Virus record (IMG/VR): IMGVR_UViG_3300028833_000057
Span: 32,001 to 96,000 of that record
DNA length: 64,000 nt
Strand: one strand, 5' to 3'
From: a virus
Lineage: Duplodnaviria; Caudoviricetes
Below the pieces are notes generated by a model. It saw only the letters and a program-made list of their open reading frames with translations. It had not been told where the DNA came from and searched no databases. Below are positions 1-61,069 of this stretch, in pieces; the stretch's first letter is position 1; each line of letters opens with the position of its first letter. The translations under genes and the position numbers were made by a program.

Positions 1-5
1 AATAA

Positions 6-758: not shown

Positions 759-847
759 TTTCTTTATTTAATATATATTCTTAATATCTAACATTATTAT
801 GACGATGCAAAAATCTCCTTGTGTTGTTAGGTTGTTTATCGAATAAA

Positions 848-884
848 TATCCCTTAGCGTAGAAATATGCTAAGGGATATCTTT
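848..884. terminator. intrinsic terminator hairpin
   Basis: ATCCCTTAGC-GTAGAAATAT-GCTAAGGGAT inverted repeat with T-rich flanks. Confidence 0.7.
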
Positions 885-902
885 ATGAATTTTTAAAGCC
901 AA

Positions 903-914
903 AACAAAGAATTG
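903..914 (+). promoter_or_regulatory. late-type promoter AACA-N6-TG
   Basis: AACA AAGAAT TG upstream of the structural operon; same motif precedes about 10 late genes. Confidence 0.7.
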
Positions 915-936
915 TATAAAATTATATAGGTAGATT

Positions 937-2259: not shown

Positions 2260-2267
2260 GTTATATA

Positions 2268-4613
2268 ATGACAGCGTTTTATAACAAATACCAGTCATAT
2301 AGACAGTATTTCATAAATCCGAACTATATGCCTTTACAAGAAAGAGCAGAAGCAGAAGACCTGCTGAATCCTAATACGTTAGTTACATCTGCTCTTCTTG
2401 AACAGCGCAATATACTAAGATTTCAAGGTGTACATCCTATACCTGCTAAATATTATATGCACTCTAAGAGTGCTACCCCTATTAGTACATTATTAACTAA
2501 GCTTTCTGAAAATGTAGATTATCAGGCATACTTTGTCCAAGGCTTAGATAATATTGGTGTTGTTACTATTACAGATTTCGACTCATCTATTAATCTCTCG
2601 GATTATCAGCTACTAGTATTTGATAGGAATAATAATGACTTGATTCATTCAGGATTTAGAATTAACGATTTTAAATCTACATTCTGGTATGTAATTAATA
2701 ATACTCTGTATGTTATTCTTATGAATTGCACTAGATATTGCAATGATGAAAATGATTTAACAAGCTTTGCAGATGAAGTTGATGTAGTCTTAATGCGTAA
2801 GGTTAATTGCCGTGATAGCGTTAAGATAGGGTTAATGGAATTTACATTACCTCCTAACGATCCTACAACACAAGTTACTGAAAATGAGTTACCATTTACG
2901 GAATTACAGACATTATATCTTAGATTTGATGAAGTTGGCCCGAAGACCACTATGTTTAATAGATATAATGAAAGATTCTATGGTGTTGCGCTATACTTAT
3001 CTGAGTATGAAGTAGAAATTGGTGACGTTATCTATAACGAACATGATAAAGAGGTAACAGTAACCAGTAATAATATTACTCTGATTAATGATGCTATTAG
3101 ACAGACACATATCAAAAACTGGTTGTTAATAGATCCAAGTAAATATCAGATATCTATTGGTGATAATTGTATTATTGCTGAATGGAATAATATTGCAGAT
3201 GTTGCAGATCTAAATCTCTTTATATATGCTTCTTATAGTGATACTGAAACAGGAACAAGCCTTCCTAGAATGAAGATACCTGTTACCAGATTATATATGA
3301 ATAGTAAATTCTATTTATATAATAAGAATACTTTTATAAAGACTGAATATGAATATAGATATAATCCGGGTGAGGATCATCCTATTATTTCTGTAAGCAG
3401 AGATAATACTACTCCATTAAGAGCTATTGAAGAAAGCTTTAATGTAGTTCGTGATGATGACGATAATATCATAGGTCAATATCCTAATTATATCCCTATG
3501 AATTGGAGTCTTCCTAACGATTTACGTTTAAGTGATGATCCGGATTCACATATCTATGGTAGATGGATTGATACTGAAGATGTATTCGTATTTGTAGATG
3601 GCGTAAAGTTAACGCCATATCTAGATTACGAAGTATCTAATAATGGTTTTATAGGCGAAGATATACCAGCTGGTAGTATCAAGTTCAAGAATAGGAATTC
3701 TAGTGATACTGCGGAAACTTTCCCGGTATTTCCTATATGCCCTGTGGATGAATCTGTAAGTCTTCATACTATATTAGTATTTACTATTCCATCTTCTGTA
3801 CATAGAAATGTATATTATGGCCCATATACTTATGGCGATCATTCAGAATTCGTACATGATATAAGTGAAGAGGTCATGAGTGCTTCTGATTATAAATTTA
3901 AGGATAGTAATGGAGTATATCCAATACTAAATATTGAAGCTGCTACAACTAAAGCTACAGTTTCAATGCTTTCTCCTGAAAATTATATAGTCTTTGCAGC
4001 AGGTAGATATCAAAGAACTGAAGATAATAAGGCTGCTATTGCATTAGATAATGCTCTATATATGAGAGAATTATCAACATATACAAGTATAGAGTATCAC
4101 TCTTACTTTGACGATAGCAAATTATCTTATATAGATAATATGTGGCACAATAATTCTACATATAATCCATTAGCAGAGAAGTTAATTAAGTATTTAACAG
4201 GAGCAGACCCTGAAGATCCTGAATACTTTGATATAGAGAAAACCTATATGATTAATTTCTTAGCTGATAGAGAAGATCCAGAAGAACCAAATAGGATTAC
4301 TGAAGAATCTTCAGAAGCCTATGGTATTCCGACGGACTATATCTACTATGGTGGTTCTACGAATATCTTTGAACTCTGGCTCAAGCATAATACTCGTCTT
4401 GTGTTTAGAAACGATATTGATGCACAGGATGATACTGCTAGACGTAGAGTTCCGGACAAACAGACTTACTTCAGTGCCAATGATGATCTATCTGAAAGAG
4501 GTTATCTGAATAATATTCATGTGTCTGGTAATGATATGCCGGGTATGCCTGAATATACTGCTTCTAATGATATAAATAATGAAGAAGAAACTGAAGACGA
4601 CAATAACGGATAA
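2268..4613 (+). CDS. putative virion structural protein (beta-rich)
   Basis: 781-aa acidic, Tyr/Asn-rich ORF; VFVFVDGVKLTPYLDYEV resembles small beta-sandwich motifs of phage tail/baseplate proteins. Confidence 0.6.
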   Translation: MTAFYNKYQSYRQYFINPNYMPLQERAEAEDLLNPNTLVTSALLEQRNILRFQGVHPIPAKYYMHSKSATPISTLLTKLSENVDYQAYFVQGLDNIGVVTITDFDSSINLSDYQLLVFDRNNNDLIHSGFRINDFKSTFWYVINNTLYVILMNCTRYCNDENDLTSFADEVDVVLMRKVNCRDSVKIGLMEFTLPPNDPTTQVTENELPFTELQTLYLRFDEVGPKTTMFNRYNERFYGVALYLSEYEVEIGDVIYNEHDKEVTVTSNNITLINDAIRQTHIKNWLLIDPSKYQISIGDNCIIAEWNNIADVADLNLFIYASYSDTETGTSLPRMKIPVTRLYMNSKFYLYNKNTFIKTEYEYRYNPGEDHPIISVSRDNTTPLRAIEESFNVVRDDDDNIIGQYPNYIPMNWSLPNDLRLSDDPDSHIYGRWIDTEDVFVFVDGVKLTPYLDYEVSNNGFIGEDIPAGSIKFKNRNSSDTAETFPVFPICPVDESVSLHTILVFTIPSSVHRNVYYGPYTYGDHSEFVHDISEEVMSASDYKFKDSNGVYPILNIEAATTKATVSMLSPENYIVFAAGRYQRTEDNKAAIALDNALYMRELSTYTSIEYHSYFDDSKLSYIDNMWHNNSTYNPLAEKLIKYLTGADPEDPEYFDIEKTYMINFLADREDPEEPNRITEESSEAYGIPTDYIYYGGSTNIFELWLKHNTRLVFRNDIDAQDDTARRRVPDKQTYFSANDDLSERGYLNNIHVSGNDMPGMPEYTASNDINNEEETEDDNNG

Positions 4614-4622
4614 AGGTAATTT

Positions 4623-5483
4623 ATGTCTTTTGAAATTTATGAATATAAACCTACTAACGATGGAAAACTTGAAAAAGTCGTATATGAGACTTTGGAGGAT
4701 TTAAATCCATCTGATGCAGATACACCATTTGAATATCTGAATCGTTATATTGCTCAAAAGCGTATTGCTTTTGAGAGGGCAAATAATGAGATTATAGAAA
4801 AATGGCATTCATACGTAGAAAATTATTTTAGATCATTAGAACTTGTCAAAGAAGAATTAAAAATACGTGGATATGATATAGACCACTTAGACTTTAAAGA
4901 TGTATGGGAAATAAATAGCCCTGTCTTAAAGTATATGGCAGATAATCTATGCCAAGCCTTTGTACTTACCTTTGGTAATACAGAGGCTTTTTTAAATACA
5001 GATTTAATGAAGAATGCACCTGAAGATATTAAAGAAGAATTCAGGGATATTACATCTGACGAATATTACACATGGTTACAGTACATGACTAATGCTGAAG
5101 CAACAAGGCCAGTGCGTCCAGTCCTTCTTAGCGATACTTACGAGAAGTTTGACTTAATTGAAGCTAAGAATATTATTGTGACCATTCGTGATAAATTTGT
5201 TAGGAATAATGAAGATAGTATGGCAGATGCCTTAAAGCTGTGTTCATTCCTAGCCGGTGCTATCAGACGCATCTACAATGTACTTCCAGAAGAATCCAAG
5301 AATAAATTATCCGCAGTAGATAGAAATATTCTAGATTACGGATTTAAATTCCAATCTGAATTACAAACTAGATGTGATTCTGAATTAGCAGATGAAGGTT
5401 TAGGTGTAATAAAGAAACTCTTAGAGAGAGAAAGTACCATTAATGATATTATTCTCTTAGTTTACTCTCACTTGAAGGCGTAA
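4623..5483 (+). CDS. hypothetical protein in structural operon
   Basis: 286-aa helical-looking ORF, AAAGGT RBS, closely coupled to neighbours. Confidence 0.7.
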   Translation: MSFEIYEYKPTNDGKLEKVVYETLEDLNPSDADTPFEYLNRYIAQKRIAFERANNEIIEKWHSYVENYFRSLELVKEELKIRGYDIDHLDFKDVWEINSPVLKYMADNLCQAFVLTFGNTEAFLNTDLMKNAPEDIKEEFRDITSDEYYTWLQYMTNAEATRPVRPVLLSDTYEKFDLIEAKNIIVTIRDKFVRNNEDSMADALKLCSFLAGAIRRIYNVLPEESKNKLSAVDRNILDYGFKFQSELQTRCDSELADEGLGVIKKLLERESTINDIILLVYSHLKA

Positions 5484-5484
5484 T

Positions 5485-8400
5485 ATGGTTAATTTTAGTA
5501 AAGCAAGATTTGAATTCATACCTAGCGTATTGGATTCATCAGAGATCGACTCTCCTTATACTAACAGCAATGTTGAAGGCCATGAAGAGATGTCGAAGTC
5601 TTCGGATAGAATCTATCCAAGACGTGATGAATTATTCCAAGACGAAAATGGTAATCTATATTTATATAAAGTCATTAATGGCATTCACAAGTACGTGAAG
5701 ATTTCTGCTGATGCTACTGTAGGCTCAGATAATGGTGATCGCATAAATAAAGATATATTTATGCCGTTCCAGAAAATTGCTAAAGTAGATACAACCAGTA
5801 GTATTAATTCTGCAGTATTTGATGATGGCATTATAGCGGTTGCTAATGGAAATGCATTAAAGTTTTTCAAGAGCAATCTGAATGGTGATGGCTTAGATGA
5901 AATTGAAGGCGAAATATCTATAGCCAATTACGCTGATTTCTTTGCAAAGAAGTTTGGTACGTTTACATATAATAATGGTAATGTAAATTTCAGAGTCCTT
6001 TTATGCTGCAAGTCTGTAACTGAAGGCTACGAAGTTAAGAATACTGTACAGGCATTCAGACTTGTTAGCGATTTATCCGTAATTCAGACTGCTTATACTT
6101 TAGAACCATACGGAACTGCTGAAACATTTACGGAAAACATTACCAGTGTAGGAAACAATCAGGTAAATATTCTTCGTAATGGTGACAGTACCACAAGCTT
6201 TAGGGCTATAGTTAATAGCTCCATTATTGAAGCCGAGTTAACTGATGATACTATCACGTATACATGTCCTGCTGAATCATTTATTAGCTTTGCAAAGTCT
6301 TCCGGTAATACAAATGCCGTAATGACTTCAATGCCAATGTCCGGTAATATCCGTCTATATACTAAGGATACTGATTCCTATATAGAAGTACCGCCATCTG
6401 GTGGTAATAATTACTATGGCACGACTATTCTTAATGTAAAACGTACAAAGGCTAGACCTAATGCGTTTAGCATGTATCCTATCGTTAAGATTACATCTAC
6501 ATCATGCCACCTATATACCTCTGACTTTGGATCTACTCCAGTTGATAACCTTTTCTCTATGGATTTAGAAGAAGGTGAAGAATTTGTTAGAGTCATTGAT
6601 AACTCTCATTCCATAAACCATGCAAATATGGTTGAAGGTTATGAGAAATTTGTAGCATCATTCATTGTCTTCACTACTAAAGATAATATTTCTTATGCAA
6701 ATCTATACTATTGCATACCTAATGCTCTTGAAGATGACAATGTAACTAGTGCTAACGAGAGATATCAGAATTCTACATACTCCGTAGTAAAGGTCGGTAG
6801 ATACCAATTTAATAAAGGCGAAGAGATTAACGATCTCGAAACATTGTCTTATATCTATATACTAGATAATGGCAATATACTAGAGAACCGTTCTGACTCT
6901 CTAGTAATGTATGCTGCTTCACAGTTTAAGTATTTATCTGCGTCTTTTGCAGATAGCTTGTTTGCCGCAAATCTTCAGGCATTCAAACTTATAAGCAATA
7001 TTGTAGATACTAAGGAACTAAGGGCAACTGACAGCTATACTACACACACAGATATATCTAAGGCAAGTATTAAGGAAGCCAGCGTAACAAATATAAGTGC
7101 TGAATCCGATAATAGTTCTAGATTGTTAGAAAATATCCAATTCGATGTAAATCGCTTTACATCTTTCGGGTATGACCATTACTATATCAACATGGATCTG
7201 GAAGCATATAATCCATTAACGATTTGTGATATAGATACTGATGAAGTATACAATATCACTGTATCATTTGGAGATGATATATCAATATTTGATATTAGGA
7301 ATACACCAGATTATGGTAAGTTTATTGTAAACGTTGATAAACATGGTATAATATTTGGTAACTTCTATTGCTATTTAAATAATGTCTTAAAGACCTTTGG
7401 TTACCGTTCTACAATGAGCCTTGAAGAGCTTATTGAAAGAAAGAAGAAAGATTCTATTAATACAAAATGTGAATTTATCCTAACTGAAGAAGATGTATCT
7501 CCGTATATTGGATCCGATACCGTTAGAAACTTATTTGATTCTTTAAAGATAGTTACCCGTACGGATAATTCCATTATACATATCTATAATACGATAGATG
7601 GTAGGATCATCCTTAAGGAAACCGCAGCTGTTTATAATGCAGATGATTTTAATAAACATACCGTAGATATTTATAATACTAGCTTGCTAAATAGAGAAGT
7701 AAGTATTAATGCTTACTTTGAAGTGATAGCTAATGCTGGTAATCTCAATGTAATAACGAAGAGCTATACAGATGGCTTAGTGTATAATAAGTATATATTT
7801 ATACCAATGGTAAATGTTACTGATAAGCTTGTAATTGTTAGGCTCTTAAGACCATGTATTACTAGAAGCACTGGCTATTATCCTGAATCATATGGTTTAG
7901 CATCATATATATCGAATAATGAAATCGTTTATTATAATAATAGATACACGATGCTAGAACCAATGCTATCGTCACATGATGATTTCTATGACCTTCCGCT
8001 AGTAGCTACATCATCTAAAACTGTGATGTACATTGACTCTAACAAGAAAGTATGGAACGTCAATTTCAATTACAGAATGAATGAAGATAACATTGGCATA
8101 TCTTTCAAGGAATCTGCAAATGTAATCTGCGATAATAATATCTTGCCATATACTAGCGGTGCATATCGTTTTATTGATAAGTACAACAAGATGTACTTAT
8201 ATACTGAATATCGTGGAGAATACAAAGTAGTAGAAATTACCCACGAAGGCGATATAAATAGTGTAATACTGGTACGCACAGGATTATACGACCCAGGTCG
8301 TGGTAATAACGATTGCCTATTCATAGGCAATAATATCCTGACAAACGTATACAGAAATGATACAGGTACAACGGGTTATATAAAGGTAAAAAATACATTA

Positions 8401-49616: not shown

Positions 49617-50384
49617 ATGCCATCTTCTCAAGCTGAAATATTTTTGATTAATACTTCTGCTAGTCAGGCTAAACCTTCGATTATTAGACAAACTGATAAA
49701 GAAATTGAGTTTAGAACAATCTGGCAGCATGGTAATGTATTAAACCGTAATAATAAGATTTATCCATCTGACATTATTTGGAACGCTGCGCAACAGGCTC
49801 CTATTCAGGAACAGCTAAAGCGTAGATGCTGGTATGGTGAAGCTAACCATCCGATGAGTCCTTCTATTGAAAGACAGTTGTATACTGATATGCATAATGT
49901 CTCTCATACAATTTTATCTTTTGAAAGAGAAGGCGATATCTTTAAAGGTAATGCTCTTACTTTTGGTTCTGCTATGGGGCCATCTATGTATGCTGCTATT
50001 GATCAGGGTGGCATTATTAGCTTCTCTCTTCGTGGTTTGCATAAGTTAGTTAGAGATCCTAATGACCAACGTAGAATGTTAGTTAAAGATCTCCGCATTT
50101 TTTGCTATGATTGGGTCACATTCCCGTCTCATGAAGATGCACATATGATCCCAGCTAATGAATCTGCTAAGATCTTTGAAAAGAGAATTCCTAAGGAACT
50201 CATTAATACCGTGATGGCTAGTGAAAATGCTGGTATTCTTGAACAGTATGAAGACTTCCTTGATGAAGAAATTAAGGATACTTCTATTGAAGATAATAGC
50301 TTAATTCTAAAGTCTGCTCATAATACTTTGAATATTAAGCTAAAGAATAGAATTACTAAAGATATTCTTAATGAATTTTTCTAA
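49617..50384 (+). CDS. prohead (capsid maturation) protease, T4 gp21-like
   Basis: NRNNKIYP, WYGEANHP, VSHTI, SFSLRG and YDWVTFPS motifs; late promoter AACT-N6-TG at 49583-49594. Confidence 0.88.
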   Translation: MPSSQAEIFLINTSASQAKPSIIRQTDKEIEFRTIWQHGNVLNRNNKIYPSDIIWNAAQQAPIQEQLKRRCWYGEANHPMSPSIERQLYTDMHNVSHTILSFEREGDIFKGNALTFGSAMGPSMYAAIDQGGIISFSLRGLHKLVRDPNDQRRMLVKDLRIFCYDWVTFPSHEDAHMIPANESAKIFEKRIPKELINTVMASENAGILEQYEDFLDEEIKDTSIEDNSLILKSAHNTLNIKLKNRITKDILNEFF

Positions 50385-50418
50385 AAAAAAAAGACCATGC
50401 AAAAGCATGGTCTTGTTA

Positions 50419-51303
50419 TTATCTTTTTTGGTATATTGGCTTATATGGTAAATCTCTTGTCTTAAGTAATTGTAAAACATTATCATAGCTTTTACCAGAT
50501 TCTTTGGACATTTGTTTTACTGTTTTATCTGGACTATACCATGTAAGATCTGAATTACGAACCATGCGTACACGCTTATATGGTAGATTAAGGCGTATTA
50601 ATGCATTTCTAATGCATCCTGCTTTGACACCGCTTTGCTTAGCCATTTCAGGAACAGTTTTATTGGCATCATACCACCAAGATAAATCATCATAATTCAA
50701 TGGATCTTTTATTATACCTTGTAGATTATACTTATGAGCTATCGTCCTTACATGTTTCTCACTTATGCATAACGTTTTAGCGATAATATAAGCAGGCTGA
50801 CCTTGCATCTTTATGATTTTATCAGCTAAATCTTTTGATTTAGCATCTTTAATAGATTGCTTTTTCTTGAAATATTCGTCAGATAATCCACTGGATATTA
50901 TTATTTGCCTTATGCTTTCATGAGATAATCCTGCTTTTTCTGCCATTTGGCGCAGAGATAATGTAGGATCATACCATGATGGCTTAGACAATATTTTATG
51001 ATGAACTTCTTTTTTATATGGCAATTTAAGTTCATTCAAGATTGTATATATCGCAGAAGTATACGTTCCAGATATCCTTGCCATTTGGCGAACAGTAAGC
51101 TTTTTATCATACCAGTCTTTCAAATTGGAATCTGCTATTTGTCTTACCTTTTTATAAGGTAAATTTTTGGTTATTAATGTATTATAGATAACCATAGGCT
51201 TTTTACCAGCAGCCTTAGCCATTTCTCTGACTGTCAACTCTGGTGAATACCATATAGGTATTTTTGATGAAACTCTATGATGAATTCGGTTTAAATCTTT
51301 CAT
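50419..51303 (-). CDS. tandem HTH-repeat protein (about 6 repeats)
   Basis: Repeats of WY...T..EM...SG....I...L....LPYK; AAGGAG RBS. Confidence 0.75.
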   Translation of the reverse strand: MKDLNRIHHRVSSKIPIWYSPELTVREMAKAAGKKPMVIYNTLITKNLPYKKVRQIADSNLKDWYDKKLTVRQMARISGTYTSAIYTILNELKLPYKKEVHHKILSKPSWYDPTLSLRQMAEKAGLSHESIRQIIISSGLSDEYFKKKQSIKDAKSKDLADKIIKMQGQPAYIIAKTLCISEKHVRTIAHKYNLQGIIKDPLNYDDLSWWYDANKTVPEMAKQSGVKAGCIRNALIRLNLPYKRVRMVRNSDLTWYSPDKTVKQMSKESGKSYDNVLQLLKTRDLPYKPIYQKR

Positions 51304-51400
51304 AATGGCTCCTTGTTAAAATTATTAAACCATTATTTAATATAAGCAAATTCATAAGAAATTTACAGAAAAATAAAAGACCATACGAAAGTATGGTCTT

Positions 51401-51898
51401 TTATACTGCTTCTCTATTTTCTAATTCCAAAATATAATCTGGTGGAGGATAGAGTGCTTTATATTGCGGTGATGCAAATATTTCTTGCTCTATATCATTC
51501 TTAACTTCTAAGAATATATGTAAGGCTACATGAATATTCTCAAATTTCTTTTTATATTTATATGGATTATGTTTATATTTGTCAGGTATGAATACATTAT
51601 CTTTTATAAATATTAGTAAGAAAGATTCTTTGATAGAATCAGGTAAAGTCCTGAATTCCAATCTATCTGTAGCCTTATCAAGATCTTCATCATAAGATTT
51701 ATAAAAGAAGTCTTCAGAAGATCTAGCTTCAGAAAATATCTCATATACTCTATCAATGACTATATTATTAAATAATTTCATTTCATATTCATCATCTAGG
51801 TTCCAAGCTCTATAATAGCTCTTTCTAACTTCAGGTAGACCATCGCTCTTAGCCATTTCCAAGAGAATATGCTTCATATAGTCTTCTAACATAAACAC
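51401..51898 (-). CDS. hypothetical protein
   Basis: 165-aa ORF in early cassette. Confidence 0.7.
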   Translation of the reverse strand: MFMLEDYMKHILLEMAKSDGLPEVRKSYYRAWNLDDEYEMKLFNNIVIDRVYEIFSEARSSEDFFYKSYDEDLDKATDRLEFRTLPDSIKESFLLIFIKDNVFIPDKYKHNPYKYKKKFENIHVALHIFLEVKNDIEQEIFASPQYKALYPPPDYILELENREAV

Positions 51899-51919
51899 AC
51901 CTACCTTTATGGAAAAGTA

Positions 51920-52210
51920 CTATTTCCAAAATATTAAATAGTGTATATAATTTTTATCTTCTTCCGGTAAATAAAATTCATATTTACAAATTAATGAAAA
52001 TCCTGCAGCTGATAGTTCTTCAATAAACTTACTTTGTTTTGCCTTAGATACATCTACTTCAATTTGTTTTTCACATCTGCAAATTGCTTGTGTGACTTTA
52101 TGTTCGACATATCTGATAAGTGCATTATATGGTTTATCGGCTGGATCTACAGCACTCGCTTTAAGTTCATCATATATTTTAGTTAAAGGCTTCATGCCAA
52201 AATACCCCAT
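51920..52210 (-). CDS. hypothetical protein
   Basis: 96 aa, overlapping upstream gene end. Confidence 0.65.
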   Translation of the reverse strand: MGYFGMKPLTKIYDELKASAVDPADKPYNALIRYVEHKVTQAICRCEKQIEVDVSKAKQSKFIEELSAAGFSLICKYEFYLPEEDKNYIHYLIFWK

Positions 52211-52545
52211 TTATTGTGTAAAAGTTCGTTCATTCTTAAGCCAAAGATTCTATGTAAATTCTCTATTTTGCCATTAGAAGCATACTTCCAAACCTCATGG
52301 CTTAATTTATCCATTTTATCATGGATCTCTTCGTATTCCATTTTATTTAAAGGCTTAGTATCTAAAATATGACCCCAATGCCTAGCTTGCATTCTAAGTA
52401 ATTCACAGTAGTTTGATCTACTACGTTCAATATATTCTTTAGATGATATTAATTTGGTTTCGAGAGTATACAACATATGTCTACAGTCTAGAACTGTCTC
52501 GCAAGTAGCAAATGCATGCTCTAGTTCTTCATCAGTGAATAACAT
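52192..52545 (-). CDS. hypothetical protein
   Basis: 117 aa; AGGAG RBS; TATATTAAA promoter. Confidence 0.75.
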   Translation of the reverse strand: MLFTDEELEHAFATCETVLDCRHMLYTLETKLISSKEYIERSRSNYCELLRMQARHWGHILDTKPLNKMEYEEIHDKMDKLSHEVWKYASNGKIENLHRIFGLRMNELLHNKWGILA

Positions 52546-52618
52546 AATTGCTCCTAATTTCAGTATTTAATATAAAAAATAAAACGGTATTCCATATGGA
52601 ATACCGTCTTATTTGGTT

Positions 52619-52873
52619 TTAGGATTCGTCTTTTCTTTTAAGTATAACTTCAGACTCATGTGTATCATCTAAGCACTTCTTTTCGCCATCATATCGTGCC
52701 ATTTCAGCAAGATGGAGATTAAGCTCAAAAAGTTTATCATACTGGCGTTTCTGGCTATTTAGTAAGGTTTTATAAATATCGGCCCATCTTTTCCAGTAAA
52801 TTGTACTCATTAGTAATAATGCTGCTGTAAATGCAAGGAAGATAATTATAATAACTAATTGTAAATTATTCAT
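52619..52873 (-). CDS. small membrane-anchored protein
   Basis: N-terminal TM helix followed by coiled coil; start MNNLQ overlaps upstream stop. Confidence 0.7.
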   Translation of the reverse strand: MNNLQLVIIIIFLAFTAALLLMSTIYWKRWADIYKTLLNSQKRQYDKLFELNLHLAEMARYDGEKKCLDDTHESEVILKRKDES

Positions 52874-53381
52874 TTTGTTTTTCTTCTTTTTCAAATTTTT
52901 CTTTTAGTCTAAGGTAAGTCTTATACTCTGTTGCTCTTTTTCTTTCTTCATTCGCTTTATCAAGCATATTTTTATGGCGTTGTCTCTCTGCTTCTACACG
53001 CTCAAGAGTATCAATCCATCGTTTCTTAATTTCTAATAATTCTATATTACTATATTTCGAAAAGCGAGATATCATTAAATACATATCTTCATCGTCAGAA
53101 CTATCTATGTCTATATTATCATCTGCACTGGTGACATGTACTATAAAATAGTCTTCGCCTTTGGTAACTGTTTTCTTTAAGCGCTTAAAAGCACGAATTT
53201 CATCTAATGTAGTACTATCTGCTTGGCTAATACCTAACCCTGCCAACCATTGATCTATTATCATACTATATTTTACAAATATATCATCTGCTGTCATAAT
53301 ATTGGTGATATATTTTATTTTTTCTTCAAGAGCTTTATATGCTTCTTGAAATAATTTTTCTATTTCTGCAAAATCTCGCAT
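52866..53381 (-). CDS. hypothetical protein
   Basis: 171 aa, coupled in operon. Confidence 0.7.
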   Translation of the reverse strand: MRDFAEIEKLFQEAYKALEEKIKYITNIMTADDIFVKYSMIIDQWLAGLGISQADSTTLDEIRAFKRLKKTVTKGEDYFIVHVTSADDNIDIDSSDDEDMYLMISRFSKYSNIELLEIKKRWIDTLERVEAERQRHKNMLDKANEERKRATEYKTYLRLKEKFEKEEKQNE

Positions 53382-53827
53382 AGTAAGTAGTCCGGTTCAG
53401 TTAGTTTTATATATCCATCGTATCTATGGGCATCATCGCAATCACCCTTTGTGATACTCAAAGATGTTATTTCTTTAATACTGCTTAGAATTCTATCCTT
53501 TAAATATTTTGAAATTTGGCGATATTCAAAGTAGAAATTATCAGTACAATTATATGCTTTACTATCTACATCCAATCTAAATCCACCATCAAACGGAAGG
53601 AAGTTTATCCTATTCTCTGAAGCATAAGGCTTAGTTTTAAAATTAATAACAATTCTTATCTTCAGGAATTTTAAGACCCTGTCGCTATGTCCAGCAATGT
53701 AATCTTCTATATCTTTTATACACTTAGGAATTAGTTTGCATGTTTCGTCTACTTCTTTCTTTATCATCTCAAATCTTGTCTTATGCTTTTCTTTATAGTT
53801 TTCTACAAGCCTTTCTTCTATAGTCAT
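53360..53827 (-). CDS. hypothetical protein
   Basis: 155 aa; AGGAG RBS. Confidence 0.75.
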   Translation of the reverse strand: MTIEERLVENYKEKHKTRFEMIKKEVDETCKLIPKCIKDIEDYIAGHSDRVLKFLKIRIVINFKTKPYASENRINFLPFDGGFRLDVDSKAYNCTDNFYFEYRQISKYLKDRILSSIKEITSLSITKGDCDDAHRYDGYIKLTEPDYLLCEILQK

Positions 53828-53838
53828 ACTATCTCCTA

Positions 53839-54267
53839 TTAGTCACTATATAAACATTTTTGTACAACTTTATCGCCAAATCTTATTTCATTATCAAGCG
53901 GTGTTGGTGGTAATTCTATCCAGAATTCTATATCGTCACGTCGTATATCATTATGCTCATCATCAGTTAAATATGTATATACTGCACCATCACCGCCTTC
54001 ATCATTAAGACCAAAGCCTTCAATATGCTCGCCATCTTTATTAATTATAAGGAAATGATGTACATCCCATCCATCGATAGCATCATAGATATCTTCTTCT
54101 TTTTGTCTATGCCAAAACTTTTTAGCTAGCTCTTCTTTAAGTTCTTCTATAGCTTCTTTGACATCTTTATTATCTATTTTGAGATCGTCTACTTTAAATG
54201 TAACTTTATGCTCAGCATAAAATTCTCTAACAGACTTAGCTTCTCTAGTTGTAATTACAGTATGCAT
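53839..54267 (-). CDS. hypothetical protein (MHT-type paralogue)
   Basis: 142 aa; AAGGAGG RBS; promoter directly upstream. Confidence 0.75.
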   Translation of the reverse strand: MHTVITTREAKSVREFYAEHKVTFKVDDLKIDNKDVKEAIEELKEELAKKFWHRQKEEDIYDAIDGWDVHHFLIINKDGEHIEGFGLNDEGGDGAVYTYLTDDEHNDIRRDDIEFWIELPPTPLDNEIRFGDKVVQKCLYSD

Positions 54268-54293
54268 ATATCCTCCTTATGCTTAATTTCTTA

Positions 54294-54328
54294 TTTTAAT
54301 ATAAAAAATAAAAAGCCCCGAAGGGCTT
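54294..54328 (-). repeat. terminator+promoter cassette junction (AAGCCC-TTCG-GGGCTT...TATATTAAA)
   Basis: Same UUCG hairpin recurs near 56126, 60370 and 62011, with a one-mismatch copy near 59001. Confidence 0.8.
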
Positions 54329-54330
54329 GA

Positions 54331-54906
54331 TTATAATACCGCATGACTAAATTTTTTCTTAAAAGGTAAATTCCTATTCCTTAAATATCCATATATACAC
54401 TGTTCGGATAAACCAGACAGATAAGACATTTCGCTTAAATCTCTATCTGGAGAATACCATTTGCCTATTTCTATATCATGATCTTTTAATCTAAAATATT
54501 CTAACTTATGCTTATTTAAAAATGATTTAACATTAACCATAGGTATGCCTGACAAGAGACTCATTTCTTGTATCGTTAAATTCTTATTATAGAATTTAAT
54601 AAATTCATCGAATGAATACCTTTTAAATATATGATAACCTGACGGTCGTTGACATTTTTTATAATGCAATTTACTACTTCGCAATATATGATAAACCACA
54701 TCATAAGATAAACCAGATATAGCAGACATTTCATATATGGTTTTATTTTTATCGTACCATTCAGGTATTGATTTCTTTTTCTTATAGCTTTTACATTTTA
54801 AATTTAGTTTATTAAGATAATATGATATTGCGGTACGACATAATCCAGCTTTTTCAGACATTTCTCTTATAGTAAGCTCTGGATTATACCACTCTGGAAT
54901 ATCCAT
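54331..54906 (-). CDS. tandem HTH-repeat protein (4 repeats)
   Basis: IPEWY repeats; AGGAGGT RBS; colinear paralogue of 60387..60962. Confidence 0.8.
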   Translation of the reverse strand: MDIPEWYNPELTIREMSEKAGLCRTAISYYLNKLNLKCKSYKKKKSIPEWYDKNKTIYEMSAISGLSYDVVYHILRSSKLHYKKCQRPSGYHIFKRYSFDEFIKFYNKNLTIQEMSLLSGIPMVNVKSFLNKHKLEYFRLKDHDIEIGKWYSPDRDLSEMSYLSGLSEQCIYGYLRNRNLPFKKKFSHAVL

Positions 54907-55009
54907 ATAAACCTCCTATGCTAATGATTTACGAATATTCATTATTTAATATATATCGCGGTATATAGAAAATACGAAAAATAAAAAAGCGGCATTCCAG
55001 CCGCTAGAA

Positions 55010-56041
55010 TTATTTTGATCTGGCAAATACATGCTTAAAAAGAACTTCTGGATGGTTGATGTATAACCACCTTTCCATATTTTTATATCCGATACGGCAG
55101 ATCTTGGCGAATTTTTCAATCGTCATATCCTTATTCCAGAAAGATGCAAATTTATCTGGAACTTCAGAAAGATGATCTTTGAGTCTTCGCTTTTTCTTTA
55201 TCCAAAGTTTATCTGGGTGGTACTTTCTGAGCCAGTCTCTTACTGACGTAGGATTTGCCCCAATAAGATCACTATATTCTTTAATAGACATACCATCGTG
55301 CCAATGCTTCTGAAAATTTTCTTCGCTATTTTTATAGTTTCTATTACCATATCTTTTTTCTGGATGATATTTTGACATCCATTTATATACAGATACGACA
55401 CTAGCCCCTATAATATCGGCATATTCTTCATAAGTCATGAGGTCATTCCAGTATTTCTGAAAATTTTCTTCACTATTAATAACATCGGCCTTACCCTTTT
55501 TAAATTTTAAATTATGTCTTCTTAATAGTGCACCAAGAGTACGAAGTTTAATTCTAGATTCCTTTGCCATTTGATCAAGTGTTTTATTTGGATGATACCA
55601 CTCGCCAACCTCAAAAGTATTTTTATCTTTTACTTTCTTAAAAGGTAAATTTCTAGAAGTTAGAATCTTTCTAACTTGGCTATTGCTTAACTCAGATATC
55701 TTAACCATTTCCAAGATAGTACAATCCTTGTTATACCACTCAGGAATATCTTGTAGCGACTCTTGGCGAATATCATCAGCAGTCTTAAATTTTAAATTAA
55801 GATGCTTTAATAACGGATATATAGTGGTAACTCCTATCCCAGTCTCTTGAGACATTTGCGTAACGGTTTTATTGGGATCATATACTCGCTTAATATCTTC
55901 GCAGTGTTTATCTATTAGATGCTTATACTTTAGATTTCTTTTAAATATAAATTGTCTTATATTATGCTCAGAAATTCCAGCGCTTTCTGCCATCTGTCTA
56001 ATGGTTTTATTGGAATCATACCATTCTGGTAAAATGTTCAC
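55010..56041 (-). CDS. tandem HTH-repeat protein (7 repeats)
   Basis: Four PEWY-type plus three FQKYW-type repeats; AAGGAG RBS before GTG at 56041. Confidence 0.8.
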   Translation of the reverse strand: MNILPEWYDSNKTIRQMAESAGISEHNIRQFIFKRNLKYKHLIDKHCEDIKRVYDPNKTVTQMSQETGIGVTTIYPLLKHLNLKFKTADDIRQESLQDIPEWYNKDCTILEMVKISELSNSQVRKILTSRNLPFKKVKDKNTFEVGEWYHPNKTLDQMAKESRIKLRTLGALLRRHNLKFKKGKADVINSEENFQKYWNDLMTYEEYADIIGASVVSVYKWMSKYHPEKRYGNRNYKNSEENFQKHWHDGMSIKEYSDLIGANPTSVRDWLRKYHPDKLWIKKKRRLKDHLSEVPDKFASFWNKDMTIEKFAKICRIGYKNMERWLYINHPEVLFKHVFARSK

Positions 56042-56077
56042 GATTAGGCTCCTTGTTAGATGCAATAACATTATCGC

Positions 56078-56141
56078 ATCATTATTTAATATATGCTGTG
56101 GTACATAGAAAATACGAAAAAATAAAAGCCCCGAAGGGCTT
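56078..56141 (-). repeat. terminator+promoter cassette junction
   Basis: About 45 bp nearly identical (one mismatch) to 56478-56522, followed by the GCCCCGAAGGGC hairpin. Confidence 0.8.
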
Positions 56142-56172
56142 GATATAGAACTAATATTTTATAAAATATCTT

Positions 56173-56442
56173 TTACAGTAGGAAGGATGGCAACGCATTA
56201 GATTCAATCTTATAAGATATTTTTTGTGAATTTGGTGAATAGCATTTCATTACCGTCATCTCTGAGGATGAACTTAGTTTCTTGCATTTTATCTCTATTT
56301 CTATACAACAATTGTTATTGAAACTTACATTAGCTGAAACGATAGATATATCATTCCCAAGATTCTTTACTTCTTCTATAAATGCTTTCTTTTCTTGAAG
56401 AATGTCATTCGTAGCTTTAAGTAAAGGATTATTTTTGTTCAT
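56173..56442 (-). CDS. hypothetical protein
   Basis: 89 aa; AAGGAG RBS; single-gene cassette. Confidence 0.7.
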   Translation of the reverse strand: MNKNNPLLKATNDILQEKKAFIEEVKNLGNDISIVSANVSFNNNCCIEIEIKCKKLSSSSEMTVMKCYSPNSQKISYKIESNALPSFLL

Positions 56443-56607
56443 AATGGCTCCTTTAATAGATACAACGGAATTGTTGTATCATTATTTAATATATGCTGTG
56501 TTACATAGAAAATACGAAAAAAAAGACGTAGGTTTTGAAACCCCCTACGTCCATGCCACTTCCGTTCCTAAGGGCATTCTCTGCTCTGACCCATATTGGA
56601 AACTTGA

Positions 56608-56811
56608 TTACTCAAGCAGAGCAATGGTTTCTTGAGGAAGTCTACAGTTATAAAGCTCATCAGTCTTAAGGATTCCGCAATACTTGTAGAACCACCAGAA
56701 GATCTTTTTATATACATATACTATATGATAAATTCTACGGTCAATTTCATGGCTATCGTCAATATACCACTTATATTTACTGGCTATTGGTTGTATTCTC
56801 GGAATCTTCAT
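56608..56811 (-). CDS. small hypothetical protein
   Basis: 67 aa; AAGGA RBS. Confidence 0.6.
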   Translation of the reverse strand: MKIPRIQPIASKYKWYIDDSHEIDRRIYHIVYVYKKIFWWFYKYCGILKTDELYNCRLPQETIALLE

Positions 56812-56830
56812 TGTAGACTTCCTTAAAGAT

Positions 56831-57406
56831 TTATTCGTCTTTAGTATGTAAGATAAAACTTACTGTATTAAGATACTGTGATACTGTAGGTAAGCCTATA
56901 ATGCTACGGATAATCTGCATGAAGTTACAAATGTCTTTAAGACCTACAACTGCACGGAATCCTTCGTGAGCACTATTTTTGGATTCGAAGATTAACCCAT
57001 GGCAACTATTCTTGCTATTTTCTACGGAAATTCTTAAGTCACCATACTGTAAAGGTGCAGGTTCTTTAATTTCCCTGATATCTATACAATCTAATTGCTT
57101 ACAATAATCAAATAGATTATAGAAGAATGTCTCATTAGAAGCCCAAGGGATTTCCATAAGCATTGCAGGACCTTCTTCTGCATTATTGATAAAGCATAAG
57201 GCATCATATGTATCATCGCCTTTGGCAAATGCCAAAGAACAGTTAGTGGGTACATACCATTCTTTATCTTTATATATCATATCATATGCAAATTGCGTAA
57301 AGTCTACGCCTTTATTGCCATCAGGTTGAACTGATTTAGTATTATAAATATAACCAAGCCTGAAGTTACAGGTCTTGGCTCTTTGCGTGTTTTGTCTTGT
57401 TGTCAT
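56831..57406 (-). CDS. hypothetical protein
   Basis: GAGGT RBS before MTTRQ; ORF track begins at 57427. Confidence 0.65.
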   Translation of the reverse strand: MTTRQNTQRAKTCNFRLGYIYNTKSVQPDGNKGVDFTQFAYDMIYKDKEWYVPTNCSLAFAKGDDTYDALCFINNAEEGPAMLMEIPWASNETFFYNLFDYCKQLDCIDIREIKEPAPLQYGDLRISVENSKNSCHGLIFESKNSAHEGFRAVVGLKDICNFMQIIRSIIGLPTVSQYLNTVSFILHTKDE

Positions 57407-57539
57407 TAATAACCTCATCTGTTTCATTTAAAGTCTTATTACATTTTTCTATAACACTATCTCCAAAAATTATCTTTTCAAATATAATATAGAATTTCTC
57501 TAATAAGTAATCTATAGGATTATAATAACTTCTAGCCAT
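57366..57539 (-). CDS. small hypothetical protein
   Basis: MARSYY start immediately follows the upstream stop. Confidence 0.45.
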   Translation of the reverse strand: MARSYYNPIDYLLEKFYIIFEKIIFGDSVIEKCNKTLNETDEVINDNKTKHAKSQDL

Positions 57540-57540
57540 T

Positions 57541-58329
57541 TTAGAATCCCGTTTGTGCGGATATATAGTGAATCGGTTTACCCTTAGAGGTTCCAACGAT
57601 TTCTACATAGTAGTCTTCATATTCTTGGCTATATTTAATATATGCAAAGCCTGTAAAGTCTTCTATGACAGTACCTTGGGCCTTTGTAGGTCTCTTCTCT
57701 ATATACCATGCGTTTACATCACAGACACAGACCTTAGCTGCATCTGCACAAAATTCTCCAACTGGTTTCTTGGTATCGTAATCAAACAGAGTACAAGACC
57801 AATCACCATATACTGTAGTTTGGAGAATGAAGCATTCTAAGTTTGCATCATATTCGTCTATATCTTCCTTAAGGATATAACATGGATCTGTAATAGCTAT
57901 ATCCTTATGGGAGAATTCTTGATATTTATCAGTTAGACCTTTCTTACGGTCTTCCTGAAGCACTTCATATCCAATCATTTTCCAATAGGTAGCCGCTGCA
58001 TCATAAATATGCCATTTAAGGAATTCTTCTGGATTCCAAGAATAATAGGTAGTATCTTCCTTAGTAACAAGATGTTTGCTATGCCTTAATTCCGTTTGAG
58101 GAACTTTTAAGGCAAGGTTCATACATTCGCTATATCTACGGAATAATTCTACATTTCCCAGCTTAAAATGAATGGGCTTTGCTAAATTCTTAGCTTCTTG
58201 AAATTCTTCTTTCTTTTCAGCATAATAGATATATCTCGGAACTGGCTTCCCTTCTTTCTCTAATCTTTCTCTAATTCTAGATTCTACACAGTTTGCCATA
58301 TCATATCCTATTTGACTGTAATGTGCCAT
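57541..58329 (-). CDS. hypothetical phage protein
   Basis: 262 aa; ITDPCY...YGDWSC...GEFCADAAKVCV motif-like segment; function unknown. Confidence 0.75.
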   Translation of the reverse strand: MAHYSQIGYDMANCVESRIRERLEKEGKPVPRYIYYAEKKEEFQEAKNLAKPIHFKLGNVELFRRYSECMNLALKVPQTELRHSKHLVTKEDTTYYSWNPEEFLKWHIYDAAATYWKMIGYEVLQEDRKKGLTDKYQEFSHKDIAITDPCYILKEDIDEYDANLECFILQTTVYGDWSCTLFDYDTKKPVGEFCADAAKVCVCDVNAWYIEKRPTKAQGTVIEDFTGFAYIKYSQEYEDYYVEIVGTSKGKPIHYISAQTGF

Positions 58330-58955
58330 TTATATGGTTTATAACAACACAGGTTTTCATCTTCTAAGGGTTGCTCTTCTACAACACATTCTTGAATGCC
58401 TTTATTGTTCATAGATAAAATGATAGCATTTATAAATTGCGTTAAGATGATTTTTATGATTGCTTCTTCTTCAATCATAAAATCTGGAACGAAAAACCCT
58501 AGGACTATACTATCCGGCATGTATTCTTCCATTTCCACACATTCATCTTGCTCATTATAAATACTAGGGTATGGTTCTAAGTATAGAACGCTATGAGATC
58601 CATTTATGCTATAATGACAAAGAACGATGTTAAATGAATGGAATTCATTATTATTGGCGATAGCATTAAGCCTGTCTGCTATATACCTAGCTGTATTTTC
58701 CGTCATCATATTCTTTACAAATAAATGCAGAAAACTATCACCTAGGTTTCTATTGAAATTATTAACATCATGGCAATAGTTGAAAATATCTTCATAATTA
58801 ATTTGGTCTGTCATAAGCTTGGACTCTCAAAGTGCTTGCTTTGCAAAGTCATTAAGTACGCATGGATTAATCTGGTCAGCATCGAAAGTGATTCTATATT
58901 CTTCTATAAACTCTTGTGTGCCTTCAATACGTTTAGTACTAATTAAAGTGTGCAT
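58308..58955 (-). pseudogene. MHT-type paralogue interrupted by a single in-frame TGA (or two small genes: 58827-58955 and 58308-58814)
   Basis: ATG at 58955 with GGAG RBS gives MHTLISTK..., in frame with the 168-aa ORF across one TGA at 58827-58829. Confidence 0.5.
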
Positions 58956-59020
58956 AGATTCTCCGTGGATGTATTCGCTTAATTTAATATAAAAAAATAA
59001 AAGCCACGAAGGGCTTGATA

Positions 59021-59803
59021 TTATAATACTGTAAATTTATTCTTAATTCTAGCATACGATAAATTACGTCTGTATAAAAGAGCATATAGATCTGCTAAAC
59101 TTATTCCAGATTCAAAAGACATTTCTTCAGCAGTCTTATTAGGCGAATACCATTCTCCTATGAGAAAATCTTTATATATTTTCCGATATTTAAGATGATG
59201 TCCATTTAAGAAGCTTCTCACTTTTTTCTCTGGAATTTTTGATAAAAGACTGATTTCTTTAACGGTTAAATTTTCATTGTAGTATTGCATAAAGTTATGT
59301 ATATTATATTGCCTTTTATGTAATTTTTTACTTACAGTTGTTTTATATTTGTAAGATAAATTTAATCGCTTTAGAATTACGCTAATACGTGAATAACTCT
59401 TTCCCGCTTTATCTGCCATTTCTTGAATTGTACTATTAGGGTCATACCATTCTGGGATATCTGTCCTAGCTACTGATTTAACAGCTATTTTTTGAATTTT
59501 GCTATTATGGTCATACAATTTCACAATATCTGCCCTAGCTTCGTTGGCATGTTTGTATTTAAGCTTATGTCCAAGTAGATAATTTCTAATTGTACCTTTA
59601 CTTTTACCACTAATAGTTGCCATTCCAGCTATAGTAAAATCTTCATTATACCACTCTGGAATATCTGCCTTAGATCCTCTGACATGTTTGTAATTAAGCT
59701 TATGTTTTAGCAAGTATTTTCTAATCGCATATATGCTCTTACCACCGATAGATGCCATTTCTTTTACAGTATAATCTTCATCGTACCACTCGGGAATATT
59801 CAT
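59021..59803 (-). CDS. tandem HTH-repeat protein (5 repeats plus a partial)
   Basis: IPEWY repeats; AGGAGGT RBS. Confidence 0.8.
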   Translation of the reverse strand: MNIPEWYDEDYTVKEMASIGGKSIYAIRKYLLKHKLNYKHVRGSKADIPEWYNEDFTIAGMATISGKSKGTIRNYLLGHKLKYKHANEARADIVKLYDHNSKIQKIAVKSVARTDIPEWYDPNSTIQEMADKAGKSYSRISVILKRLNLSYKYKTTVSKKLHKRQYNIHNFMQYYNENLTVKEISLLSKIPEKKVRSFLNGHHLKYRKIYKDFLIGEWYSPNKTAEEMSFESGISLADLYALLYRRNLSYARIKNKFTVL

Positions 59804-59910
59804 CTTAAACCTCCTAAATGTTAATGTCTATGAATATCCATTATTTAATATATGAGAAGATAATTTTAAAGTACGAAAAAAAAAAGACCTACATTGTGTA
59901 GGTCTTTTAT

Positions 59911-60285
59911 TTAGCATATAGCATTTATTGCTTTATTCAGGTCATTAATTTTTCCATTATCATCAAGATCCTGATCATTCATTATTGACAAAATTTCATC
60001 CATCTTACGTTGCTTGTAGCCGAGATTCTTATTCTGGAATATTTTTGCCTTTAATTCATAATCCTCCCTTTTTAAAATATTCATACAATTATTTAGAGCG
60101 GACTCCAAATACTTCTCATGATAGATGTCTTCAAGTTTTTGCTTATTTTCAAGCATTTTAGCTTGACAAACAAGCATTTCGTCTTGGATTTTTATTTTCT
60201 TATCCATCGTCTTTACCAGACGCACTGTTGCAATGATTAGAGCACCCATAGCTCCAATACAAATAGGAATGAGATATTCTACCAT
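59911..60285 (-). CDS. membrane-anchored coiled-coil protein
   Basis: AAGGAG RBS before MVEYL; N-terminal TM helix. Confidence 0.7.
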   Translation of the reverse strand: MVEYLIPICIGAMGALIIATVRLVKTMDKKIKIQDEMLVCQAKMLENKQKLEDIYHEKYLESALNNCMNILKREDYELKAKIFQNKNLGYKQRKMDEILSIMNDQDLDDNGKINDLNKAINAIC

Positions 60286-60327
60286 AATGGCTCCTTTGTT
60301 ATAATGTAACTTAATTGTTACATCATG

Positions 60328-60365
60328 ATTTAATATATAGCGTGGGTCATAGAATTTACGAAAAA
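60328..60365 (-). repeat. 38-bp direct repeat (promoter unit), copy 1
   Basis: ATTTAATATATAGCGTGGGTCATAGAATTTACGAAAAA identical at 60999-61036. Confidence 0.9.
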
Positions 60366-60386
60366 TAAAAAGCCCCGAAGGGCTTA

Positions 60387-60962
60387 TTATAGTGAGATAG
60401 CACATTTTTCTATATACTTAAAAGGTAGATTTCTTACATATAATGCATTTAATATTGTTTTACAAGATAAACCAGATATTTCTGACATTTCGTTTACAGT
60501 CCTTTCAGGAGAGTACCACTTGCCAATCTCTAGATCTCGTTTCAATCTAAAATATTCTAGCTTATGCCTATATAAAAATGCGCTTACATTATCTAATGGA
60601 ATGCCTGATAGCAAACTCATCTCTCTTGCTGTCAAATTCTTATTATAGAATTTCATAAATTCTTCAAAAGTATATTTTGCACAGTATTTATGTCCAGGTA
60701 ACTTCTTAGCTTTTTTATAGGGTAATTTATTACGTGATAATACATTATAAATACAATGAAAGGGAAGCCCGGATATTTCAGACATTTCTTTTATGGTTCT
60801 CTTACTATTATACCATTCAGGTATTGGCTGCCTTCTATCTTCTCTTTTACATTTTAAGTGATGCCTATAAATATATCTATATACTCTTTTACGAGATATT
60901 CCAGCCTTTTTAACCATTTCGTTTATGGTACAATTTTCATCGTACCATTCAGGAAGATCCAT
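60387..60962 (-). CDS. tandem HTH-repeat protein (4 repeats)
   Basis: LPEWY/IPEWY/FMKFY/IGKWY repeats; AAGGAGGT RBS. Confidence 0.8.
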   Translation of the reverse strand: MDLPEWYDENCTINEMVKKAGISRKRVYRYIYRHHLKCKREDRRQPIPEWYNSKRTIKEMSEISGLPFHCIYNVLSRNKLPYKKAKKLPGHKYCAKYTFEEFMKFYNKNLTAREMSLLSGIPLDNVSAFLYRHKLEYFRLKRDLEIGKWYSPERTVNEMSEISGLSCKTILNALYVRNLPFKYIEKCAISL

Positions 60963-60998
60963 ACAAACCTCCTTGTTAAGTGTTATGAATTTTCCATT

Positions 60999-61036
60999 AT
61001 TTAATATATAGCGTGGGTCATAGAATTTACGAAAAA
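60999..61036 (-). repeat. 38-bp direct repeat (promoter unit), copy 2
   Basis: Identical to 60328-60365. Confidence 0.9.
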
Positions 61037-61069
61037 AAAAAAATAAGGATGTAGAGTCCTTATTCTTTT

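Follow-up and report, generated by a model that had tools for sequence, protein, structure and literature searches.

Genes and repeats at the locus

The window, that is, the whole stretch of DNA analysed here (64,000 nucleotides), covers bases 32001-96000 of IMG/VR virus record IMGVR_UViG_3300028833_000057, a 267,826-bp record that is rated complete and represents a 268-kb jumbo phage. Between positions 50419 and 60962 of the window, its minus strand carries five genes whose products, P0001 to P0005, are built from tandem helix-turn-helix (HTH) modules. They belong to a genuine and rare family of long tandem-HTH arrays that is specific to phages, and most likely act as DNA readers that are made early and whose specificity evolves. 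No source gives this family a name, and Pfam has no entry of its own for it.

An earlier note on this DNA had described five repeat-only open reading frames (ORFs) with about 6, 4, 7, 5 and 4 repeats. All five ORFs were recovered on the minus strand at the same coordinates, and a hidden Markov model (HMM) built on the repeats of the five proteins gave agreeing counts, one P0001 repeat being degenerate. Two module subtypes are distinguished, type A (PEWYD...LPYKK) and type B (NFQKYW...KYHPE). P0001 (50419-51303; 294 residues) has five strong type-A repeats and, at residues ~160-203, one degenerate HTH, within which Pfam places HTH_29 (residues 173-197); its gene is arranged tail-to-tail with that of the prohead protease (49617-50384). 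P0002 (54331-54906) and P0005 (60387-60962) are paralogues of 54% identity, each with 191 residues and four type-A repeats. P0003 contains seven repeats, four of type A followed by three of type B, and P0004 (59021-59803; 260 residues) has five type-A repeats together with a relic at residues 95-109. The P0003 gene was listed as 55010-56071 (353 residues). The ATG at 56071 sits ~10 nt past the promoter core and lacks a ribosome-binding site, and the GTG at 56041 lies behind AAGGAG and gives the protein an M-N-I-L-P-E-W-Y start that matches its paralogues; judged from these signals, the true start is most likely the GTG, which gives a gene of 55010-56041 and a protein of 343 residues.

Repeats cover 72-90% of each chain. 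The earlier note was right about their tandem nature but set their length at about 40 residues; the measured period is slightly greater, 44-49 residues or 132-138 nt in DNA. Its consensus was recovered as xIPEWYDxxxT(I/V)xEM(A/S)xxSGxSxxx(I/V)xxxLxxxxLxYK, and all seven tetrapeptides that it had quoted from behind the turn glycine occur in the repeats. When the entire 267,826-bp genome was scanned in six frames, no repeat was found outside the five genes, so no genomic copy is joined to another domain.

We also looked for a catalytic domain that might have been missed, which would make the repeats fragments of a nuclease family. The five proteins have no Pfam match to a nuclease or other enzyme family, and none of the ten adjoining ORFs contains a nuclease domain. 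Relatives with extra N-terminal segments likewise gave no nuclease match, and no catalytic domain was found in 15 close metagenomic representatives. Matches to PHROG profiles annotated "HNH endonuclease" were obtained, all confined to the HTH part of those profiles. The lack of a catalytic domain that the earlier note had read from the sequence thus extends to the neighbours and close relatives, and the repeats do not turn out to be pieces of a nuclease family, an outcome that the note had named as one that would refute it.

Helix-turn-helix character and predicted structure

All five proteins pass Pfam gathering cut-offs for HTH families (HTH_58, HTH_17 or HTH_28). HTH_58 scores 40.2 bits in P0001 (cut-off 23.8), HTH_17 scores 38.6 bits in P0005, 34.1 in P0004 and 27.3 in P0002 (cut-off 27), and HTH_28 scores 35.7 bits in P0003 (cut-off 25). 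Position statistics were compiled from 104 repeats of the close family. The near-fixed positions are W5, Y6, T11, E14, M15, A/S16, S/A19, G20, I/V26, L30, L35, Y/F37 and K38, with M15 and L30 almost invariant. Repeat positions 16, 20 and 26 correspond to positions 5, 9 and 15 of the classical HTH motif and carry its signature of a small residue (Ala in 62 repeats, Ser in 24), a turn glycine (73 repeats) and Ile or Val (47 and 45 repeats, respectively).

P0005 was modelled with AlphaFold2, using an alignment of natural four-repeat segments from relatives, with a mean predicted local distance difference test score (pLDDT) of 85.4 and a predicted template-modelling score (pTM) of 0.46. A model from the single sequence (pLDDT 57) was dropped in its favour. 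Every repeat of P0005 is modelled as a helix of 8 residues and one of 10 joined by a 3-residue turn (H13-20/H24-33, H57-64/H68-77, H112-119/H123-132 and H156-163/H167-176), so that the HTH fold is predicted throughout, in agreement with the Pfam cut-offs, the HTH signature and the modular multi-HTH arrays that had been proposed. The modules are modelled confidently and their mutual arrangement is not; with a pTM of only 0.46 they are predicted not to be fixed relative to one another, which fits beads on a string. Single repeats align to the HTH domains of the Mos1, SETMAR and Tc3 transposases, the DUX4 homeodomain, Myb and Tn3 resolvase (Z = 3.3-4.4, root-mean-square deviation 2-3 Å, 42-49 residues). 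These scores are weak, and all of them point one way, to an HTH. The proteins are basic, as first described, with isoelectric points of 9.45-9.91 and net charges of +13 to +29, and the linkers between repeats are rich in Lys and Arg.

Variability, subtypes and selection

Among the 104 repeats, entropy peaks where the second helix begins, at positions 23-25 and 28 (3.4-3.9 bits), and is also high at two surface positions of the first helix; in all, about ten positions per repeat have high entropy. When positionally equivalent repeats are compared, identity is 0.79 at core positions, 0.42 at the first-helix surface, 0.31 at recognition positions and 0.51 elsewhere, so that the conserved scaffold with variable recognition-helix positions noticed earlier is borne out. 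For P0002 and P0005, the ratio of nonsynonymous to synonymous substitution rates (dN/dS) is 1.02 for recognition codons and 0.31 for the remainder, at a dS of about 0.8; in the comparison of P0004 with its orthologue in the metagenomic locus L001, where dS is saturated, the two ratios are 0.24 and 0.12. Recognition positions therefore change two to three times faster, and positive selection is not demonstrated: in neither pair does dN/dS at these positions clearly exceed 1, and dS approaches or has passed saturation.

Within one protein the repeats are 28-61% identical at best, the upper value being that of the top pair, and 11-43% identical to the first repeat. Most are closest to the repeat at the same position of an orthologue or paralogue rather than to their siblings in the same chain, as seen for repeat 3 of P0002 and of P0005 (74%), repeat 4 of P0004 and of P0007 (76%), and repeat 7 of P0003 and repeat 6 of P0014, a protein of six type-B repeats (81%). 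By this pattern the arrays are old, each module having its own identity. Repeats 1 and 2 of P0004 are an exception: they form a 135-nt tandem duplication of 76% identity at 59525-59794, by which the array recently gained one module. The earlier note had raised the possibility of a repeat-to-sequence code; a simple one like that of transcription activator-like effectors (TALE) is not supported by the repeats, which are too divergent, have about ten variable positions each and find their nearest match in the same-position repeat of another protein.

We also noticed that the P0001 orthogroup has one conserved repeat whose recognition helix, G-(L/V/I)-(S/T)-H-E-R-(V/I)-R-Q-(I/L), resembles that of sigma-70 region 4.2. 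It is located at residues 106-149 of P0001, 202-245 of P0006, 150-190 of P0008, 57-100 of P0009 and 51-95 of P0010. Sigma70_r4 (PF04545) is the top Pfam family in three of six equivalents of this one repeat type, at 18-20 bits against a cut-off of 24.1.

Expression signals

Each of the five genes has its own promoter-like motif, strong ribosome-binding site and terminator, and thus forms a self-contained unit, as had been claimed. The upstream order is the same for every repeat gene: a T-run, TTCGTA, ~23 nt, TATATTAAATAATG, and then AGGAGG or AAGGAG. On the minus strand, a motif scan placed the promoter-like cores at 51332-51344 for P0001 (TATATTAAATAAT), 54941-54953 for P0002 (with TTTTTCGTA ahead of the core), 56081-56093 for P0003, 59840-59852 for P0004 and 60996-61008 for P0005. 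A terminator scan placed hairpins on the same strand after each gene, at 50391-50414 for P0001 (a two-sided terminator-like hairpin that also serves the convergent protease gene), 54313-54328 for P0002 (AAGCCCTTCGGGGCTT), 54988-55005 for P0003, 59001-59016 for P0004 (AAGCCCTTCGTGGCTT) and 60370-60385 for P0005 (again AAGCCCTTCGGGGCTT). Terminator-like sites number 23 in 11.5 kb, with 4.4 expected, and the stem AAGCCCTTCG(G/T)GGCTT is common to four of them.

Convincing copies of the full motif number seven genome-wide, all at 51.3-61.0 kb of the window (51332-61063, minus strand); three further full-motif matches beyond this part were judged spurious. The full unit (hairpin, T-run, TTCGTA, ~23 nt, TATATTAAATAATG) precedes the five repeat genes and two small neighbours on the same strand, an 89-residue ORF (56173-56442) and a 125-residue membrane/coiled-coil ORF (59911-60288). 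Looser forms of the motif stand ahead of other small genes, here and in relatives, which suggests a general promoter class. In the distant phage AR9, the consensus for early transcription by the virion RNA polymerase is AAATATATATTAT-(6N)-G(+1) (PMC5312081), and the motif of the repeat genes, TATATTAA-N6-purine (G/A), resembles it. Early units of the AR9/phiKZ type are marked by an extended, conserved AT-rich element, start 6 nt downstream of it and are transcribed without the need for newly made protein. Early expression of the repeat genes is a reasonable inference from this likeness, not a result. The genome itself contains a weak RNA-polymerase-beta-like match (23% identity to the Rpb2-like gene of locus L004, described below; genome position 136273-137103).

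The leaders fall into two classes. In three of the seven cassettes, a short hairpin directly follows the promoter core and is itself followed by AAGGAGCC; the hairpins are GATGCGATAA..TTATTGCATC, GATACAAC..GTTGTATC and ATGTAAC..GTTACAT, located at about 56058-56080, 56458-56480 and 60302-60322 of the minus strand. The P0002, P0004 and P0005 genes share a different leader, which ends in TTAACA-AGGAGGTTT.

Relatives, distribution and turnover

An exhaustive profile search of 1.84 billion protein representatives returned 1009 proteins at E ≤ 0.001, of which 21 reached E ≤ 1e-30. Three of the 21 come from the window itself, three are giant poly-HTH proteins of another kind, and 15 are close family members with 3-9 full repeats each. 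Every close relative that was looked up is a metagenome protein without a name; the contigs reach 243 kb, and in relatives the repeat genes are likewise clustered, two or three together. Among 50,697 GenBank phages, neither a megablast match for the 13-kb region nor a tblastn relative of P0004 at E ≤ 1e-5 was found. A word-indexed protein search with P0005 found nothing beyond P0005 itself and its paralogue P0002, and pattern scans of IMG/VR (with P0005 and with an alignment) found no relative among other records. A pattern scan of cellular genome contigs with the same alignment, resting on few peptide patterns, also found none, which suggests absence from cells.

Locus L002 comes from a relative very close to this phage: its prohead protease is 95% identical, and the counterpart of a 262-residue gene at 57541-58329 is 90% identical. 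Between these two anchors (50385-58329 here), gene content and length differ, and the two repeat genes of L002, with 8 and 7 repeats, encode proteins only ~41% identical to P0001. Judged from this comparison, the repeat family sits in a hypervariable accessory region bounded by conserved anchors. Locus L004 comes from a 243-kb jumbo-phage contig that is otherwise unrelated; across 21 kb the type-B gene (42% identity) is all that it shares, so at least the type-B form is patchy in distribution. In L004 (positions 1-6726) multisubunit RNA-polymerase-like genes with Rpb1 and Rpb2 domains stand a few genes upstream of this gene. A more distant contig (47% protease identity, 60 kb) is without a repeat gene and, being 23% complete, is uninformative on this point.

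Comparison with known systems

The nearest characterised architecture is that of Cbp1 and Cbp2, in which two or three tandem HTHs with basic linkers are aligned 5' to 3' on the 25-bp repeat of CRISPR loci (PMC3597662, PMC10883916). Like the phage proteins, they consist only of tandem imperfect HTH repeats of ~42-45 residues, with basic linkers and no further domain. The repeat profile matches the two-HTH structure of Cbp2 (2lvs) at E = 1.4e-5, and NCBIfam HTH_Cbp1 (NF040595) scores best in P0003 (53.8 bits) and at 16-43 bits in the others, with no match in P0005. However, Cbp proteins have two or three repeats, while the phage proteins have 4-7 and their relatives up to 8-9; Cbp is a single-copy crenarchaeal gene, while this jumbo phage has five members of its family; and only the phage family has the N-terminal PEWY segment. 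With a best score far short of the 140-bit equivalog cut-off, the phage proteins would work like Cbp1 without being members of its family.

The Pax paired domain, Myb and the bipartite HTH of Tc3/mariner transposases also link small modules that read adjacent DNA segments (single-repeat Z = 3.3-4.1). They differ in their eukaryotic or transposase context and in having 2-3 modules, usually with other domains attached, and no sequence relationship is detectable past generic HTH likeness. TALE proteins share tandem repeats with variability centred on positions that face the nucleic acid, but the phage modules are separate small domains rather than turns of a continuous superhelix, and no one- or two-residue code is evident.

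Within phages, the profiles of PHROG 323 ("transcriptional regulator, D5-like") and 14131 ("DNA binding protein") match over 80-190 residues, that is, over several repeats, with best E-values of 1e-11 to 1e-12, which indicates that multi-HTH phage proteins are already catalogued. These matches differ from full relationship in that profile coverage is partial, and the functions of both groups are annotation only. For PHROG 323, E ranges from 9.8e-12 to 3.6e-7 over parts only of a 319-position profile, and PHROGs has no curated cut-off. Nothing of relevance on tandem-HTH phage proteins, on the D5 protein of T5 or on HTH_58 came out of a literature search. Two further candidates were set aside. 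The top PDB sequence match, the "CAP repeat" 8vd6, is a de novo designed protein (PMC12339374) and was rejected as a relative, and the "tandem helix-turn-helix" of Avs5 denotes TPR/Sel1 hairpins and is no parallel.

Interpretation and alternatives

On balance, we consider it probable, though by no means assured, that the five genes encode early-expressed, sequence-specific double-stranded-DNA-binding multi-HTH proteins with a beads-on-a-string organisation. Each module comprises an extended N-terminal segment with the conserved Trp and Tyr, an 8-residue helix, a glycine turn and a 10-residue recognition helix, and would fold independently; 4-7 such modules follow one another in each protein, separated by short K/R-rich linkers. 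The analysis establishes this architecture, the HTH character, the absence of other domains, the charge, the pattern of variability, the cassette structure and the turnover between related phages; DNA binding, collinear reading, early timing and the biological role are proposals. By analogy with Cbp1/Cbp2, Pax and Myb, successive modules would be placed along the DNA, and the second helix of each would read a few base pairs, while the basic linkers would track the backbone or the minor groove. At an estimated 8-10 bp or so per module, the whole array would recognise a long composite site of about 30-70 bp. As stand-alone cassettes behind an AR9-like early promoter of the virion RNA polymerase type, the genes would probably be expressed in the first minutes of infection, and their products may then occupy particular sites on host or phage DNA and block or redirect transcription or another DNA transaction. 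In the evolution of the family, whole genes are duplicated, modules are gained and lost, the two subtypes are mixed, and recognition-helix residues change fast.

Several findings weigh against this interpretation. A tandem-repeat search of the phage genome did not find a candidate target array. The Foldseek search of the whole P0005 model against the PDB gave no match at E ≤ 0.001, which is expected for four loosely connected mini-domains, and the Z-scores of single repeats are low, the domain being tiny. The best HTH_Cbp1 score is far from the NF040595 equivalog cut-off of 140 bits. Variation in the second helix may stem from relaxed constraint instead of shifting specificity, and the argument for early timing is the similarity of the promoter motif to that of AR9, a distant phage.

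The genes could alternatively derive from the DNA-binding modules of free-standing homing endonucleases and be, or formerly have been, selfish cassettes without a nuclease that might protect or compete at homing sites. Phage HNH homing endonucleases have the same HTH module type in free-standing genes with their own signals, and here PHROG 8446 (HNH) matches at E = 4.5e-14 over profile positions 22-96 of 211, together with PHROG 7545 and 3377. Each repeat gene stands alone with its own promoter and terminator, the region differs between near-identical phages, and the type-B gene is the sole gene that the L004 phage shares across its 21 kb. But no nuclease domain was found in the genes, their flanks, the repeat-bearing ORFs genome-wide or the 15 close representatives; the arrays are whole, and their repeats keep their positions from phage to phage, a sign of selection for a function and not of decay; and unrelated genes are flanked by the same cassette signals. 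We therefore regard this origin as unlikely. A similarly low probability is given to an architectural, largely non-specific role, in which the proteins would coat or compact the phage genome or the host nucleoid in the manner of histones. It would account for the high positive charge, the many weak DNA-binding modules per chain, the lysine-rich linkers and the failure to find target repeats in the phage genome. A non-specific binder, however, does not need the distinct, position-specific recognition helices that the five paralogues retain, and in repeat 4 of P0004 six of ten recognition positions are conserved with the orthologue.

Slightly less probable still is a role of the proteins as anti-defence factors that bind host CRISPR repeats or the promoters of defence genes and silence them early, the recognition helix being altered by an arms race. 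The early-type promoter, the hypervariable location and the fast-changing recognition positions would suit such a role, and the closest characterised architecture, Cbp1/Cbp2, does bind CRISPR repeats; yet the Cbp1 similarity is below threshold and could amount to generic HTH likeness, and the sole PADLOC match is to mad1, a generic 60-residue HTH model for which no single stretch passes, and which was not taken as a link to defence. The arrays might, finally, not bind DNA at all and serve as a protein- or RNA-binding scaffold, for instance one that docks host or phage RNA polymerase through modules like sigma region 4. The sigma-like repeat of the P0001 group, for which Sigma70_r4 is the top Pfam family in half of the equivalents, and the position of the type-B gene near RNA polymerase genes in L004 speak for it. 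Since the Sigma70_r4 scores stay under their cut-off, and DNA binding is what best suits the canonical HTH signature and the basic charge, we consider a scaffold very unlikely.

Tandem-HTH proteins with two or three modules are well known, Cbp1/2, Pax and Myb among them. In this phage lineage the arrays run to between four and nine modules without any other domain, and one genome has five such genes, behind early-type promoters and in a region of fast turnover. If the proteins do read long DNA sites, as the sequence-specific interpretation holds, they could reveal how particular DNA is marked or silenced at the onset of infection by jumbo phages that have RNA polymerases of their own, and would offer a compact natural scaffold for studying the specificity of chains of minimal HTHs. 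A practical limit is that the host is uncultured, and statements on function are inferences. One could go further and imagine a natural modular DNA-reading system, in which each 45-residue module stands for a short DNA word and phages reshuffle or retune modules against long host sequences early in infection, possibly defence-gene promoters or CRISPR repeats. We give this extension very little credence as it stands; if true, phages would carry a recognition toolkit comparable to zinc fingers, one open to decoding and re-engineering.

Other poly-HTH proteins

Four giant proteins from the profile search are metagenomic proteins of 1557 (P0016), 1312 (P0020), 800 (P0023) and 914 residues (P0031). 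No non-HTH domain appears among the 25 top-scoring Pfam families listed for each protein (up to 103 matched). With 10 to 15 or more modules of the HTH_23/HTH_28 type, they form a separate and much larger class of poly-HTH arrays.

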